Shown piece after piece: positions 197 to 10,847 of a DNA stretch of 64,000 nt. The DNA lies in the NCBI GenBank assembly GCA_045637465.1, contig JAZTZM010000040.1, positions 111,399-175,398 of the forward strand, read 5' to 3'. The translations under genes were made by a program, and so were the position numbers. Source of the stretch: Acutalibacteraceae bacterium (lineage in GTDB: Bacteria > Bacillota > Clostridia > Oscillospirales > Acutalibacteraceae). A model generated the notes under the pieces. The model did not search any database. It had not been told where the DNA came from and saw only the letters and a program-made list of their open reading frames with translations. Within the stretch, counting starts at the first letter, position 1; each line of letters begins with the position of its first letter.

Positions 197-222
197 AAAC
201 AGGACGACAGTGCAAAAAATAT

Positions 223-270
223 CCCCGAAATCCTTGGAATATCAAGGGCTTCGGGGTTTGTTGTTGTTAT
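223..270 (+). terminator. Rho-independent terminator candidate
   Basis: CCCCGAAATCCTTG gaatat CAAGGGCTTCGGGG hairpin (2 mismatches) followed by TTTGTTGTTGTT. Confidence 0.5.
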
Positions 271-459
271 TCCTACTCGTTGCAGGGGCTTGTGTCCTAA
301 ACAATTTTGTTTAGAAGATATTGTACCTGCTGTTCTGATTATTTTGCTTGCCCATATTATCACAGCTGTACGATAAATGCGTATCAAAATCCTATCAGTG
401 GTGATAAAGTGACGAAGGCGCACAAGGTACTCTTTCTTGTGGTTATTACCAAGTTTTGC

Positions 460-2463
460 TTAATGACATTTTTCTTTAAGGAATGCCAGGATTTTAGCCA
501 TATCATTGAGAGAACCTGTTGCATAATAAAAATCTTTTTCTTTTACTACGCAACCGATAATCGGTGAAGAAAGAAAACTCAGAGCAGTTTCAATTTCTTT
601 TATGCTAGGTACAGATAAAAGAGTGGGATTGCTACGTAACGACATATACAAATCTCGGACCGAAAGTTGACCTTTGGTTATAGGATCTTCGCATTCATCA
701 ATAAGACACTGCATTATTCCAATTAATAAAGCTCCACTTTTCTCTGTTTTATTAATATCAGCATCTAAAACGGATAAATCCACTTTTCCGGATTGTTCAA
801 ACACCTTGTGATATGTTGTGATTTTTTGGGGTGTCTTTTGATGAATGTTCAAAAATGCTTCAAGTGAGTCTACATCAAAAAGGGCAACATGATGTTCGGT
901 AGCTCTCTTTATTAATCGTTCATTAAAATCTCTGCCAACAACTGCGATATAGTTGGAACCGTGTTTTTTCTGATGTTCCTTTAAAGTATCAAAATCAACA
1001 AGTCCATCGGTAACTACGCTTGAAGAGGTTGCTTTAGCATCAACAGTAACTACAAAAGAACCTACGGGAGAGCCTGTTGTCTTTAACAACACATCTGTTT
1101 TTCCTGCACCGCCAAGCCATTCAGCATCAAATCCTATCAAGGCAAAGAAATCTCGTACAACTTTTTCGAATTTATCAGGATTATAAGAATCCTTTGAAGC
1201 CATTCTGAGTTCCGCCACGATATCAACATTATCTGCAACGGTAGTTCCATTGATTAAAGTTTCAAGTTTTTCAATACCAAAAGCGTTTCCGTATCGCTCT
1301 AAAAACAACTTGCCTCTATTAGTTAATGTGAATTTTTCTGCTGAAAGATTCATCACCAGTTTTGCTTGTTTTAAAATTGCAATACGGTTATTGATTTCAG
1401 ATACATTTTCTTTATCGAATCCATAGGAAACTTTGGCAAGTGTTGCAAGTTCTTTAGTTGAAAGGTTGCTATCTTTCAACTCTAAAAGGATTTCAAAGAA
1501 AAACAAATACCTTAATTGGAACAACGGTAGCAAAGATAAAGTATCTTTATTCTCCATCCAAGAATATCCCAAATCAGTTACAGCGTAAGACGTATTTGTT
1601 TTCCGTTCAATAAGTCCCATTGCAGAAATGGTATTTAAAGCACTTCGTGCTGAAGAATCTTTGATGTTGTATTTTTTTAAGGCAAATTTATTGATTGATT
1701 CAATTTCATTGTCATCGTTTATTTGAGTTAAAAATTCAAATAATGCCTTTTCAAATTCGTTTATTTTTCCTGGGAAGTATCCAAAGCCCGATTTCCTTAC
1801 AGAATTTTTGTTTTCTTGAAAATATGTAACAAACTGATCATCGAGAATCAGCTTATCTTCGGACAAAGTATCATCTTTACCGTGTGTTATACTTTCCGGC
1901 ATAATAGGATTTACTGTTTTCAAGAAATCTTTTCCCTTATCGGTAATGCTGTAAAGTAATGAAAATTCCTGAAACTCAATCAAGCCGAATTGTCTTAGCC
2001 ATACTAAACGATTATTAATAGTCGTGGTTATTTTCCACGCCATATCGTATTCATTAACAGCAATGTTAAACAGTTCTCGTGATGTTTTTGGGGAATCAAG
2101 ATAAAAAAGGATTTCTGCAAAAAATTTAACGTTTGCACAAAAATAAGCAGCAAGATATAAATTGTCCTCAGAGTCAAGCCATAGCTTTGCTGCTTTGGTT
2201 AATACCCACTTACCGTTACTTGCTCTTTCAACAAAGCTCATTGCACTCAATTGATGTACACACAAATGATTCAAGGTACTCTTGCTATTACTTTCCTCTA
2301 ATTGTGGCACTTGATCTAAAGGATCGTTGTTTTGAACGGCAAGCAATAACTCTTTAAGATTAGATACTATAACATTCTTTCCACCGGGGATGCTCGGTGT
2401 GGAGTGTACTTTGTGACTCCAGTCTTTAGTTTTCGGATATTCGGAAACAGGTACAGTATACAT
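460..2463 (-). CDS. FokI-like (PD-(D/E)XK) nuclease with four N-terminal winged-helix-like modules and a C-terminal extension of about 120 aa; candidate type IIS-like restriction/defence endonuclease
   Basis: 667-aa ORF. Residues about 430-540 (DFFALIGFDAEWLGGAGKTDVLLKTTGSPVGSFVVTVDAKATS...) align by eye with the FokI cleavage domain (EFFMKVYGYRGKHLGGSRKPDGAIYTVGSPIDYGVIVDTKAYS...), giving D457/D475/K477 as the D...D-x-K triad. Repeated ...LTKAAKLWL / ITDKGKDFL / VTDLGYSWM / LTNRGKLFL modules occur upstream. The gene and its flanks are visibly AT-rich compared with the rest of the window. Confidence 0.65.
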   Translation of the reverse strand: MYTVPVSEYPKTKDWSHKVHSTPSIPGGKNVIVSNLKELLLAVQNNDPLDQVPQLEESNSKSTLNHLCVHQLSAMSFVERASNGKWVLTKAAKLWLDSEDNLYLAAYFCANVKFFAEILFYLDSPKTSRELFNIAVNEYDMAWKITTTINNRLVWLRQFGLIEFQEFSLLYSITDKGKDFLKTVNPIMPESITHGKDDTLSEDKLILDDQFVTYFQENKNSVRKSGFGYFPGKINEFEKALFEFLTQINDDNEIESINKFALKKYNIKDSSARSALNTISAMGLIERKTNTSYAVTDLGYSWMENKDTLSLLPLFQLRYLFFFEILLELKDSNLSTKELATLAKVSYGFDKENVSEINNRIAILKQAKLVMNLSAEKFTLTNRGKLFLERYGNAFGIEKLETLINGTTVADNVDIVAELRMASKDSYNPDKFEKVVRDFFALIGFDAEWLGGAGKTDVLLKTTGSPVGSFVVTVDAKATSSSVVTDGLVDFDTLKEHQKKHGSNYIAVVGRDFNERLIKRATEHHVALFDVDSLEAFLNIHQKTPQKITTYHKVFEQSGKVDLSVLDADINKTEKSGALLIGIMQCLIDECEDPITKGQLSVRDLYMSLRSNPTLLSVPSIKEIETALSFLSSPIIGCVVKEKDFYYATGSLNDMAKILAFLKEKCH

Positions 2464-2713
2464 TTTATATCTCCCTTATAGCGTTGATATTATCTCAATT
2501 AACTATGATCTTGTTATAAAATTATTATAACACAGATATTTCCACTAATCAACAGGCTTATTAAGGTTATATCAAGATCAGATTATTAAAGTTTTATGTT
2601 TAGAAAAAGAACTGCTTTTGACCACTTGATACTGTACTTTCAGTGTCACCGACACTTTAAAAAAATAAAGCACCCTTACTGTCGTTTCCGTAATTCTGTA
2701 TATTTCATTTTTG

Positions 2714-2742
2714 TTGACAGCGAAAAGCTAAGGCTGTATAAT
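2714..2742 (+). promoter_or_regulatory. Sigma-A type promoter for the ABC exporter operon
   Basis: TTGACA (2714-2719), 17-nt spacer, TATAAT (2737-2742), about 35 nt upstream of the 2776 start. Confidence 0.6.
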
Positions 2743-8429: not shown

Positions 8430-10847
8430 TTATATTGTGTCTGTCGGTGTCAGTTTTTCGCCGTCGAATATAAACGTGCTGAATTCAAATGCACCCAGTT
8501 TTATTTCAGCAGATGTTTCAGCGATTTTAAGCGTTGCTGAGGCAGGCTTATCGGTTGAGTTGAATACTCTGAGCAGAATTCCGTCATCCTTTTTGCAAAG
8601 CCTTGTGAGTATTACGTTGCCGTTATCAAGCTCAACTGAGGTTTCTTTTTTCTCACCAAGACCTGACGGGAAGAACGAAAGCGCAATGCACGGCTCGTTG
8701 AAAAGCTGTGCCTGCATATCGATAAGGTTTGTGTCAGCTGTTAATCTGTAGCTGAACTCGCGCTCGCCTATGTCGATTCTGTCGTGTGTGCGGTCTGTGT
8801 CGGCAAGGGGTCTGTCACCAATCGGGTGAGCGGAATATACGGGTGTGCGAAGCAGAGAAATGCCAAGCACGTTTTTATCAACACTGCCGCCGTGAGTGCC
8901 GTTGTTGATTACTGCAAGGCTGTTTTTGCCGTCAGTAATGCTGCACCATTTCTGGTAAACGGCTTCTTTACCCTCGGTGCGAAGCTGCTCTGTGCCGAAT
9001 GCTGTCTGACCGTAAAAATCGGGGTTGTCAAACAGAGAATCAAAGTTGAGTTTATAAAATCTGCTGCTGTCGTTTGAGAGCATACGTATTTTAAGGTCTA
9101 TATAGTTGCCGTTTTTGGGCAAGGTATAGGTCACGCTTGCAAACGAATTGCCGCAACCGAAAATCGCCTGGATTTTAAGCCTTACCGCACCGTTTTCAAT
9201 TACCCTTACGTTGCCCGTTTTTTCGTCGGGATAACCGTTGAATGCGTTGGCTTTCTCGTCGCTGAGAAGTGTGAAGCGGTCAATTACATCGTTGAAGCTG
9301 TCAACCGTCATACCCCACGGGTCTTCGTTGTCACGGCTTGCAGTGATGTTTGCACTGCCTGCTTTGAGCATATCAACGCCGTTGACACGGTATCTGTCAA
9401 TAAGTCCCGTCTTTTTGCTGATGAGCACCTGCATTGTGCCGTTGTCAAAGGTGAAGTGTTCATCGGTCTGCTCGCAGGGTTCAATCTTTCGCTTGGGATA
9501 GTTCTCCACGTGAAGCTCACAGTCAAAGCGGTTTATGCTCATCGGCTCAAGCTCTGCTCTGAAGCAGACCCTCTTGCGCCAGTCAAGGCTGAACGTGCAA
9601 GCCTCTTTTTCATTCTGTGCGGGCAGGTAGTTGCCGTTTTTGCCGCGCACACTTACAAGCGTTACCTCGTTTTCGTTCCAGTTCTGGTCCTGCAGCTGGA
9701 ACTCAACCTCAACGTCCTGAACCACCTTATACGGATGCGGATTGAATACGAGAACGGGAATTTCGCCGTCCTTCGCCTTTGGCTGACCCGAGCAAAGTTT
9801 GAAGAAAGCCTTGTTCTTGTATCGCTCGGTAATTTCGTTACCGTATGAGAGCAGACGCAGGCAGTCTTCCTCCGCCGCCTTTATGCTTGTGCCGGGCAGA
9901 ATATCGTGGAACTCGCAGAAGAGCAGCGCTTTTTCCGCTTTTTCAAGCTCTGTTTTGTCGTATGTAACGCCGCTGAGTGCGAGCATTTTTTCGCATACGC
10001 TAAGCTCGTTTTCAAGTCTGCGGTGAGCCTGCTTGATGCGTGCCATTGTTGTGTAACAGCCAATCATTGTGTAGTTGAGCGATTTGTCAAAAACCTCAAG
10101 ATCGGATTTGTTGATGCGCTCAAAATAATTCTCACAATAAGAGTGCCTGAGACCTTGTTCCGGGTGCTCCTTCATATATTCCGCAATTGTCTGCAGATCA
10201 ACCCTTGACGGGCCGCCGCCGTGGTTACCTATGCCCCAGAATGTCATATTGATGCCGTCGGCATATTCACGCTCAAGCGCAAGGTTGATTTTGTTTATCA
10301 CCTTGCCTTTTCCTGTGTTATAGCCGCCGCTTAACTTGTGCGCAATTATCTCACTGCCGTCAAAGCCGCGCCAGATGAAATCGTGCTCTGCATCAATTCC
10401 TGACGGACGCATAAACACATAGGAATCATAGCCGCATTTTTTAAGTATCTGCACAAGACCTTTTGAGTGACCGAACGGGTCAAAGTTTATTGCGGTTGTC
10501 GGTGTTACGCCGAATTTTTCTTTGAAATATTTTCTGCCTGTTTCAATCTGACGGATGAAGCTTTCGCCGCAGGGCATAACGCAGTCGGGCTGAAGATACC
10601 AGCCGCCCATAATGCGCCACTTGCCCTCGCTTACAAGGCGCTGTATGCGTGCAAAAAGCTCAGGCTCGTTTTCTTCAACCCATTCGTAAAGCACGGATTC
10701 GTTGTGGTTGAATATAAAGCCGTCAAACTCATCGCAGAAATCTGCCGCAACGCGGAAGGTTGATATAGCCTCGGCAATTCCCTCGGGTCGTTGCCACAGC
10801 CATACCGGGTCAAGATGTGCGTTGCATATCATATGTAATTCTTTCAT
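8430..10847 (-). CDS. Glycoside hydrolase family 38 alpha-mannosidase (cytoplasmic, about 805 aa)
   Basis: N-terminal ...HMICNAHLDPVWLW..., FIFNHNESVLYEW and GGWYLQPDCVMP motifs typical of GH38. No signal peptide. Start taken at ATG 10847 (alternative 10868 overlaps the upstream gene). Confidence 0.85.
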   Translation of the reverse strand: MKELHMICNAHLDPVWLWQRPEGIAEAISTFRVAADFCDEFDGFIFNHNESVLYEWVEENEPELFARIQRLVSEGKWRIMGGWYLQPDCVMPCGESFIRQIETGRKYFKEKFGVTPTTAINFDPFGHSKGLVQILKKCGYDSYVFMRPSGIDAEHDFIWRGFDGSEIIAHKLSGGYNTGKGKVINKINLALEREYADGINMTFWGIGNHGGGPSRVDLQTIAEYMKEHPEQGLRHSYCENYFERINKSDLEVFDKSLNYTMIGCYTTMARIKQAHRRLENELSVCEKMLALSGVTYDKTELEKAEKALLFCEFHDILPGTSIKAAEEDCLRLLSYGNEITERYKNKAFFKLCSGQPKAKDGEIPVLVFNPHPYKVVQDVEVEFQLQDQNWNENEVTLVSVRGKNGNYLPAQNEKEACTFSLDWRKRVCFRAELEPMSINRFDCELHVENYPKRKIEPCEQTDEHFTFDNGTMQVLISKKTGLIDRYRVNGVDMLKAGSANITASRDNEDPWGMTVDSFNDVIDRFTLLSDEKANAFNGYPDEKTGNVRVIENGAVRLKIQAIFGCGNSFASVTYTLPKNGNYIDLKIRMLSNDSSRFYKLNFDSLFDNPDFYGQTAFGTEQLRTEGKEAVYQKWCSITDGKNSLAVINNGTHGGSVDKNVLGISLLRTPVYSAHPIGDRPLADTDRTHDRIDIGEREFSYRLTADTNLIDMQAQLFNEPCIALSFFPSGLGEKKETSVELDNGNVILTRLCKKDDGILLRVFNSTDKPASATLKIAETSAEIKLGAFEFSTFIFDGEKLTPTDTI

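Follow-up and report, generated by a model that had tools for sequence, protein, structure and literature searches.

FokI, a type IIS restriction endonuclease (PDB 1FOK/2FOK), and the nickase Nt.BspD6I are built to a common plan, in which N-terminal winged-helix (wH) or helix-turn-helix (HTH) recognition modules are joined through a linker to a C-terminal PD-(D/E)XK nuclease domain. The type IV enzyme Mrr is composed of two domains, Mrr_N and Mrr_cat. Solitary genes for restriction-type nucleases make up a part of bacterial immunity that is expanding and still poorly charted. Stand-alone fusions of a wH and a nuclease (DpnI, HhiV4I, FcyTI) are N6-methyladenine (6mA)-dependent type IV enzymes that rarely lie near methyltransferases and are expected to be modification-specific (Helbrecht et al. 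2024, PMC11037411), and the END nucleases set a precedent in anti-phage defense for a type IIS-like, methylase-free nuclease that acts on hypermodified phage DNA (Yee et al. 2025, PMC12191111). Here we analyze a nuclease gene in a 64,000-nucleotide stretch of DNA, hereafter the window, from an Acutalibacteraceae bacterium (assembly GCA_045637465.1, contig JAZTZM010000040.1, positions 111,399 to 175,398). The gene, an intact open reading frame (ORF) at window 460..2463 on the minus strand (stop codon included), encodes a 667-amino-acid (aa) protein, was acquired horizontally on a discrete, mobile, self-promoted 2.3-kb cassette, and is solitary, with no conserved partner. Its product is modeled as an intact FokI/Mrr-type nuclease tethered to a scaffold of five wH modules, and is probably a stand-alone, methylase-independent restriction-type defense nuclease.

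The nuclease domain spans residues 414-545 (window 829..1224, minus strand), as supported by Pfam Mrr_cat, the FokI profile, Foldseek and conserved residues. Mrr_cat (PF04471) matches residues 426-536 with 24.7 bits, above its curated cut-off of 21. When the PDB was searched with the single sequence, the match to FokI was marginal (E 0.067), while a profile of the 63-member family alignment returned FokI as the best profile match (E 2.4e-5), with query residues 399-479 laid on chain positions 388-469 of 1fok. In this alignment D457, D475 and K477 fall on the PD...DTK residues of FokI, described as D450, D467 and K469; the motif WLGGAGKTDVLLKTTGSPVGSFVVTVDAKATS aligns with FokI HLGGSRKPDGAIYTVGSPIDYGVIVDTKAYS, as does the longer stretch LGG..K.D......GSP....VD.K. 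Together with E433, the three residues (minus-strand codons checked at 1165-1167 for E433, 1093-1095 for D457, 1039-1041 for D475, and 1033-1035 for K477) do not vary among the 63 aligned sequences, drawn from Clostridia to Actinomycetota, and are at least 97% conserved in 97 full-length homologs with identities down to 35%. A preliminary description of the window had proposed a FokI-type nuclease carrying a D/D/K triad, and both proposals are borne out by these data and by the structural comparison described below.

Profile searches place the family differently from its layout. FokI_cleav_dom (PF09254) gave no match to the 667-aa protein at E<=1, and precomputed matches to it are weak or faint and confined to some homologs. 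When the 63 aligned members were scanned with Pfam at E<=0.01, HTH_45 was found in 51, Mrr_cat in 49, Mrr_N in 36, and PF09254 in none, and because of these counts the family is Mrr-type by sequence profile, whereas it is FokI-like by structure and overall layout. The catalytic motif is D475-A-K477, and the Mrr-type "PD-QXK" variant is not present in the nuclease. An NCBIfam scan of the 667-aa protein returned nothing meaningful, while the PADLOC candidate profile PDC-S02 gave a partial match (E 4.5e-7) between residues 278-446 and profile positions 93-262 of 390.

The region preceding the nuclease was modeled with AlphaFold2 from the family alignment, at a mean predicted local distance difference test (pLDDT) score of 89 for the whole protein. 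Four wH modules are predicted, all encoded on the minus strand: wH1, A-type, at residues ~25-100 (window 2164..2391); wH2, B-type and Mrr_N-like, at ~101-190 (1894..2163); wH3, A-type, at ~215-307 (1543..1821); and wH4, B-type, at ~308-399 (1267..1542). Profile-profile comparison of the sub-alignments with hhalign paired residues 25-105 with 215-312 at 97.7% probability (wH1 with wH3) and residues 100-190 with 312-405 at 98.6% (wH2 with wH4), showing that the first 400 residues consist of a unit of two modules present twice, in the order A-B-A'-B'. The four HTH-like modules of the preliminary description are thus confirmed as true internal repeats, in agreement with the AlphaFold model. Pfam HTH_45 matches wH4 at residues 355-395 (31.4 bits, above the cut-off of 25.5), and Mrr_N matches wH2 at residues 147-182 with 27.3 bits, below the cut-off of 29.5. 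The B-type modules are the best conserved overall; conservation within the whole protein peaks in wH2, which the family profile also aligns weakly with FokI residues 108-137 and in which W143, R152 and W155 are invariant, and R360 in wH4 is invariant as well.

Between array and nuclease lies a putative flexible linker at residues 400-413 (window 1225..1266, minus strand), the only segment with pLDDT below 50 and also the least conserved stretch. Beyond the nuclease, a C-terminal extension (residues 546-667; window 463..828, minus strand) is predicted to comprise a long helix at residues 563-590 and a fifth wH (wH5). Modeled alone, residues ~546-667 reached pLDDT 94.8 and a predicted template modeling score of 0.87, and fold searches returned only generic wH proteins (MecI, Fur, ORC, cullin WH-B), weakly, with a best E of 0.11. 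The FokI cleavage domain extends for ~114 residues beyond its catalytic lysine. The additional C-terminal domain of the preliminary description is therefore well supported as a folded unit, but its net excess over FokI is ~75 residues and not the 120 claimed, since FokI itself continues past the lysine. Comparison of the whole predicted structure with solved structures in the PDB identified FokI as the closest: Foldseek ranked FokI first (2fok_B; E 7.5e-12, probability 1.0, ~660 aligned columns), followed by Nt.BspD6I (3e-5), HindIII (6e-4), and then the BpuJI recognition domain. The TM-scores are low (0.24-0.28), which we attribute to differing domain orientations between this multi-domain model and the solved structures.

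Homologs are numerous. A word-indexed search recovered 115, mainly from gut and rumen Clostridia metagenomes and, where named, called "restriction endonuclease" or "hypothetical protein", and an exhaustive search recovered 683 clusters (50% identity) at E<=1e-3, 187 of them at E<=1e-30. The full four-wH build is present in 195 of the 261 sequences retrieved. The others keep the nuclease, helix and wH5 and differ at the N-terminus, having a single wH pair (~470-500 aa), an EVE domain followed by one wH pair (~625 aa) or, in one case (P0232, below), a longer N-terminus with further enzymes. The nuclease, long helix and wH5 thus form a conserved effector cassette that recurs behind other N-termini. 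Named carriers, many of which are metagenome-assembled genomes (MAGs), include many Lachnospiraceae and Oscillospiraceae MAGs, several genera of Bacilli, Streptomyces and other Actinomycetota, and one contig each of a Methanobrevibacter-labeled and a Halorhodospira-labeled MAG. Full-length copies reside on plasmids of Bacillus, Priestia, Staphylococcus and Gordonia; among 50,697 phage records no phage-borne homolog was found. In the literature we found no paper on the combination of duplicated wH pairs, a FokI/Mrr nuclease and wH5, and no characterized member of the family.

Haloarchaeal plasmids (hits H7-H12) encode proteins that match only the nuclease and wH5 (residues ~414-660). A 34%-identical copy (L075) sits on a 2.9-kb contig of the Methanobrevibacter-labeled MAG and is either a cross-domain transfer or a binning error. 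One relative of 1085 aa (P0232) joins an ADP-ribosylglycohydrolase, a dual-specificity phosphatase, an EVE domain and one wH pair to the nuclease and wH5, an unusual multi-enzyme architecture of defense type.

The gene is embedded in DNA of a composition foreign to its surroundings. The fraction of G+C (GC) is 0.346 over window 264-2625, compared with 0.474 in the rest of the window and 0.441 in the genome, and dips to 0.30-0.37 across ~300-2750. In the family as a whole, the gene is lower in GC than its flanks at 65 of 75 loci, with a median difference of -7.7 GC points. The nuclease gene was absent from all 40 relatives surveyed (24 other species of the genus and 16 genomes from other families of the order). 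A sister genome (G001), in which the downstream ABC exporter is 96.5% identical at the nucleotide level, provides an empty site: it keeps the stretch at window 215-263, which contains a terminator hairpin, and the sequence from ~2626 onward, and carries ~87 unrelated base pairs in place of the 2.36 kb at 264-2625. The composition, the survey and the empty site all uphold the view, already advanced in the preliminary description, that this is an acquired AT-rich island. A second relative (G009) was considered as an empty site and rejected, its synteny being broken on both sides.

An Oscillospiraceae MAG from an unrelated context (L033) carries a copy with 83% identity, and comparison with it defines the limits of the acquired segment, since nucleotide homology covers exactly window 266-2578. 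This segment (266..2578) comprises a promoter, the nuclease gene and a 3' tail. Its 5' end, ATCTTGATATAAC, is common to copies in at least four other contexts, and its 3' end, GAGTAGGAATAAC, is common to L033; in both genomes the 3' end adjoins the terminator hairpin of a neighboring gene. In the window this hairpin, bidirectional in shape, lies at 223..256, directly outside the cassette; because it is kept in both G001 and G009, which lack the cassette, it belongs to the host neighbor and not to the insert. Neither a target-site duplication nor a terminal inverted repeat was found at the cassette ends, and no recombinase was found. The sole repeat candidate is a weak 19-nucleotide direct repeat at 298-316 and 2587-2605 (79% identity), which does not coincide with the ends. 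How single defense genes move as sharp-edged cassettes without a recombinase is a small question that this locus raises.

Expression signals are part of the mobile segment. A σ70-type promoter at 2524..2552 (minus strand; 10/12 in a consensus scan) consists of a −35 TTGATT, a 17-nucleotide spacer and a TG-extended −10 TATAAT, and an AAGGGAG ribosome-binding site lies directly upstream of the nuclease ATG. The −35, −10 and ribosome-binding site can be aligned between homologous loci whose contexts are unrelated, so that the promoter moves together with the gene. A 22-nucleotide inverted repeat (2506..2580; arms at 2506-2527 and 2559-2580, 82% complementary) brackets the promoter and is a possible operator; given a nuclease itself rich in winged helices, autoregulation through this repeat is conceivable.

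At the other end of the cassette, the distal 145 nucleotides of the 3' tail (266..410; L033 8064-8206) are ~91-93% identical to L033, compared with 79% for the ORF. A search of Rfam returned no family for the cassette, this tail included, or for its surroundings. Antisense to the nuclease 3' untranslated region, a plus-strand frame starts with TTG at 290, encodes MCPKQFCLEDIVPAVLIILLAHIITAVR, which includes a hydrophobic helix, and stops at 374-376; in L033 it runs on further. Between the two copies the frame shows 2 synonymous and 6 non-synonymous changes, and the RNA fold z-score is -2.4. The tail could encode a small membrane peptide of type I toxin-like character or be a site for cassette mobility.

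The neighborhood of the gene was surveyed in 80 loci, from which 704 neighboring ORFs, called by a simple longest-ORF heuristic, were clustered. No conserved partner emerged, the most frequent neighbor family being generic ABC ATPases at 8 of the 80 loci. In a Pfam tally of 293 proteins, encoded by the two ORFs closest to the gene in either direction, no family of DNA methyltransferases was recurrent. The recurrent families include AAA_14/DUF4143 proteins, phage integrases, serine recombinases, rve transposases and TnpV, together with Schlafen/AlbA_2, ResIII, PLD, HNH, AbiEii-type ATPases, HepT/MNT and Fic. Individual copies lie beside a PvuRts1I-N/SRA enzyme and a type III restriction-modification (R-M) system (Trichococcus), near an ABC-three-component system, AbiH and an integrase (Priestia plasmid), by a RelB/PIN pair at one locus, and by an integrase at another; the EVE-fused relatives are also found among defense genes. 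From this genomic context we infer a single-gene anti-phage or anti-plasmid role.

At one locus the surroundings differ between two assemblies (L007 and L008). Both carry the same homolog (57% identity) after a trp operon, and only one has an extra block, downstream of position 9004, encoding PycTM and a guanylate-cyclase-type gene (Pycsar-like), PRTase-CE and a reverse transcriptase. The difference looks like a defense-island indel right beside the nuclease gene.

Methyltransferases were sought in the host genome, which is 99.3% complete, with profiles of four families (PF02086, Dam-class; PF00145, C5; PF01555, N6_N4; and PF02384, N6_Mtase). There is none in the flanks of the gene. In the genome no PF02086 or PF00145 gene was found and PF01555 gave only a sub-threshold match, PF07669 not being among the families searched. 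The sub-threshold match is a 476-aa gene that, on a reading of its N-terminal sequence, is presumably an rRNA uracil-methyltransferase. The sole clear DNA methyltransferase is a PF02384 gene of 650 aa. It belongs to an operon of four genes (G000 C18:138875-146962), the other three encoding 384, 613 and 1,042 aa. By sizes and order the operon looks like a type I hsdM-hsdS-(613 aa)-hsdR arrangement, in which only the PF02384 gene was checked by profile; the gene of 613 aa could have an accessory or defense function and be embedded in the operon. A complete 26-kb Staphylococcus plasmid, which also carries an Fst toxin and a recombinase, has a homolog and no annotated DNA methyltransferase, with the qualification that PLSDB gene tables are incomplete. 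The earlier remark that no methyltransferase was visible near the gene thus extends from the flanks to the whole genome, for these four families, and to ~80 homologous loci.

These observations suggest how a stand-alone nuclease of this kind could work. On the pattern of FokI and of modular modification-dependent enzymes, the array of wH modules would select foreign DNA and the tethered nuclease would cut near the selected site, probably as a transient dimer formed by pairing with a second nuclease domain as in FokI. The C-terminal helix and wH5 could help this pairing, or could restrain the nuclease until the array is engaged. Host DNA would most likely be spared because the host lacks the determinant that the enzyme reads. 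The likeliest determinant would be a modification or hypermodification of phage or plasmid DNA, as for type IV enzymes, and a rare sequence would be less likely. Strong conservation of wH2 across phyla fits a constant ligand better than diverse recognition sequences, and the fusion of EVE to the same effector cassette in relatives points to modified-base reading, the reader modules of the focal protein itself being wH only. Modification dependence leads because of the published reasoning on wH-nuclease fusions (PMC11037411) and the END precedent (PMC12191111); it is a tentative proposal, in which we place somewhat less than even confidence.

A number of observations weigh against this explanation. 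The FokI recognition domain, which contains winged helices, reads sequence and not modification. Profile searches of the PDB and fold searches did not detect a 6mA-sensing wH of the DpnI type, and we found no biochemical evidence for any family member. The focal locus and a 90%-identical copy lie between housekeeping genes and not in defense islands. A genomic-conflict test, which asks whether carriers avoid particular methyl marks, showed no avoidance of the common methyltransferase classes among 46 carrier genomes: C5 methyltransferases occur in 27 of the 46, compared with 57 of the 121 genomes of the class baseline, and Dam-class (D12) methyltransferases, counted in carriers only, in 14. 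The host itself apparently has a type I (6mA) system. Because C5 and Dam-class methyltransferases are common in carrier genomes, generic 5-methylcytosine (5mC) or 6mA is unlikely as the trigger, and an enzyme dependent on generic 5mC or Dam-type 6mA was rejected. A modification trigger would need to be context-specific or a phage-type hypermodification, since the common methyltransferases are not avoided, and both of these are compatible with the tallies.

Non-avoidance of host methyltransferases speaks for a sequence-specific rare cutter or selfish, homing-like nuclease, whose array of four or five wH modules would read a long sequence that the host lacks, with no need of a methylase, and which would exclude particular mobile elements or promote the spread of its own cassette. 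The closest structures, FokI, Nt.BspD6I and BpuJI, are all sequence readers, and the cassette has sharp ends, common to unrelated genomes and without a recombinase, and a promoter of its own. The insertion sites, however, are unrelated (between a lipase-like gene and the ABC exporter here, between GH3 and folate genes, after the trp operon, and others), with no common target and none of the flank homology that homing requires, and the gene lies outside any intron or intein. Reader modules so strongly conserved across phyla would be unusual if specificity diversifies, and the EVE-fused siblings point to the reading of modified bases. We consider a rare cutter unlikely, and its strict form, a homing endonuclease, was rejected for a gene that is intergenic, free-standing and inserted at unrelated sites.

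Another reading is a nuclease of abortive-infection or toxin-like character, held inactive (for instance by the C-terminal helix and wH5, or by the array) until an infection cue releases indiscriminate DNA degradation. In its favor, the gene is solitary, and toxin-antitoxin and abortive-infection (Abi)-type neighbors are present at several loci. The flexible tether and the additional C-terminal domain could gate such a nuclease, and the inverted repeat brackets its promoter. Yet no antitoxin-like partner is conserved, and a large, conserved DNA-reading array argues for direct discrimination between DNAs. FokI-type domains, moreover, are normally controlled by site binding and dimerization. Auto-inhibited degradation is accordingly a doubtful explanation, and we rate it below sequence-specific cutting.

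Among the readings that the preliminary description had offered is a classical type IIS enzyme with its cognate methyltransferase encoded at a distance. We favor the other two, a type IV-like nuclease or a single-gene defense or homing-type nuclease, the strict homing form apart. The FokI-like architecture and catalytic motif and the NCBI name "restriction endonuclease" on some homologs agree with the type IIS reading, but the nearly complete host contains no PF02086, PF00145 or above-cut-off PF01555 gene (PF07669 not searched), its single PF02384 gene lies in the apparent type I operon, no methyltransferase is linked in the 80 loci, and the plasmid copy has no annotated one, so that this reading has become very unlikely. 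A DNA-binding regulator or chromatin-type protein with a vestigial nuclease, suggested by the five wH modules and their weak matches to transcription-factor and chromatin wH families, is highly improbable given the invariance of the catalytic E, D, D and K in the 63-member alignment from Clostridia to Actinomycetota and a patchy, horizontally transferred distribution unlike that of a host regulator.

Around the cassette lie the gene for a secreted protein of 489 aa, genes of glycoside-hydrolase type and a pair of ABC exporter genes. What had been described as a truncated, convergent coding sequence at 2-196 is indeed convergent, but is really the 3' end of the gene for the 489-aa protein, which has a signal peptide; the gene extends upstream of the window and occupies G000 C40:110125-111594 (L001 10726-12195). 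A scan of the full gene gave no Pfam match. The protein is one of a family of paralogs: this genome has 12 matches, every searched genome of the genus has 6-15, and the searched genomes from other families of the order have none. On the other side, the exporter has its own promoter, as had been proposed, with a 12/12 consensus match at window 2714-2742.

Comparison of the host with G001 and G009 shows that, in this genus, a hotspot of variation lies between the rhamnosidase-type genes and the ABC exporter. In G001 (L026; G001:C20 2540-11825), ~9.3 kb replaces the secreted-protein gene and the nuclease and encodes a 969-aa protein-kinase and NACHT protein, three unknown ORFs and a GH3. In G009 (L021; G009:C26 5154-7931 and 10220-11875), genes for an SMC_N-like 925-aa protein and an N6_N4 DNA methylase adjoin the ortholog of the secreted-protein gene.

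The family is large, with its 683 clusters spread over Clostridia, Bacilli, Actinomycetota and plasmids. On a bolder view, to which we assign a low probability, the duplicated wH pair would be a new foreign-DNA reader, swappable with EVE, that senses either phage-type hypermodified DNA, whatever the common methylation of the host, or a long composite sequence, and the proteins would constitute an undescribed class of single-gene immune nucleases spreading as a 2.3-kb cassette without a recombinase. If a long composite sequence were read, the protein would be a natural counterpart of the engineered nucleases in which an array is joined to FokI. Identification of the trigger could yield a new reagent, either modification-dependent or a long-site cutter, with the shifted cleavage of FokI-type enzymes, and would show how tandem wH modules and EVE are swapped as sensors on one effector cassette.

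Among described systems, FokI and Nt.BspD6I are the closest solved structures over the whole length of the protein, to which they are related by the shared arrangement of recognition modules, linker and nuclease and by the GG..K.D...GSP...VD.K motif (profile E 2.4e-5). Identity to them is only 14-16%. In place of the FokI subdomains D1-D3 there are four wH modules, the product of a duplicated pair, and a C-terminal helix and fifth wH are added; no cognate methyltransferase was found and PF09254 is unmatched. For these last two reasons the protein falls outside the FokI R-M family. With EcoKMrr-type enzymes the family shares the same Pfam pair (Mrr_cat in 49 of 63 members, Mrr_N in 36), and both are solitary, with no methyltransferase. 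The protein is, however, over twice as long as EcoKMrr and has five wH modules to its one; its catalytic motif is D-A-K, like the D-T-K of FokI, in place of the Mrr form "PD-QXK" (PMC11037411); and the Mrr_N match of the 667-aa protein itself is sub-cut-off (27.3 versus 29.5 bits). The five wH modules and the DxK motif mean that it is not a plain Mrr.

The wH-fusion enzymes offer a further parallel, in that the C-terminal cassette places a wH after the nuclease, much as in the DpnI-like PD-(D/E)XK-wH layout. Neither the wH nor the nuclease of DpnI gave a detectable match by sequence or by fold, and a G6mATC trigger is unlikely, because Dam-class methyltransferases are present in 14 of the 46 carriers. 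The EVE/PUA-nuclease enzymes follow the same modular logic of reader plus nuclease, and EVE siblings exist in this family, whereas the focal protein has no EVE domain; the published EVE enzymes use HNH nucleases, and EVE with PD-(D/E)XK is rare (Lutz et al. 2019, PMC6765204). The END nucleases, which share with the reading favored here the absence of a methylase, are made of other parts, a PLD nuclease and an inactive EndoIII sensor (PMC12191111). In its layout the protein is thus like FokI, while in its solitary genetics it is like Mrr and the other modification-dependent enzymes.

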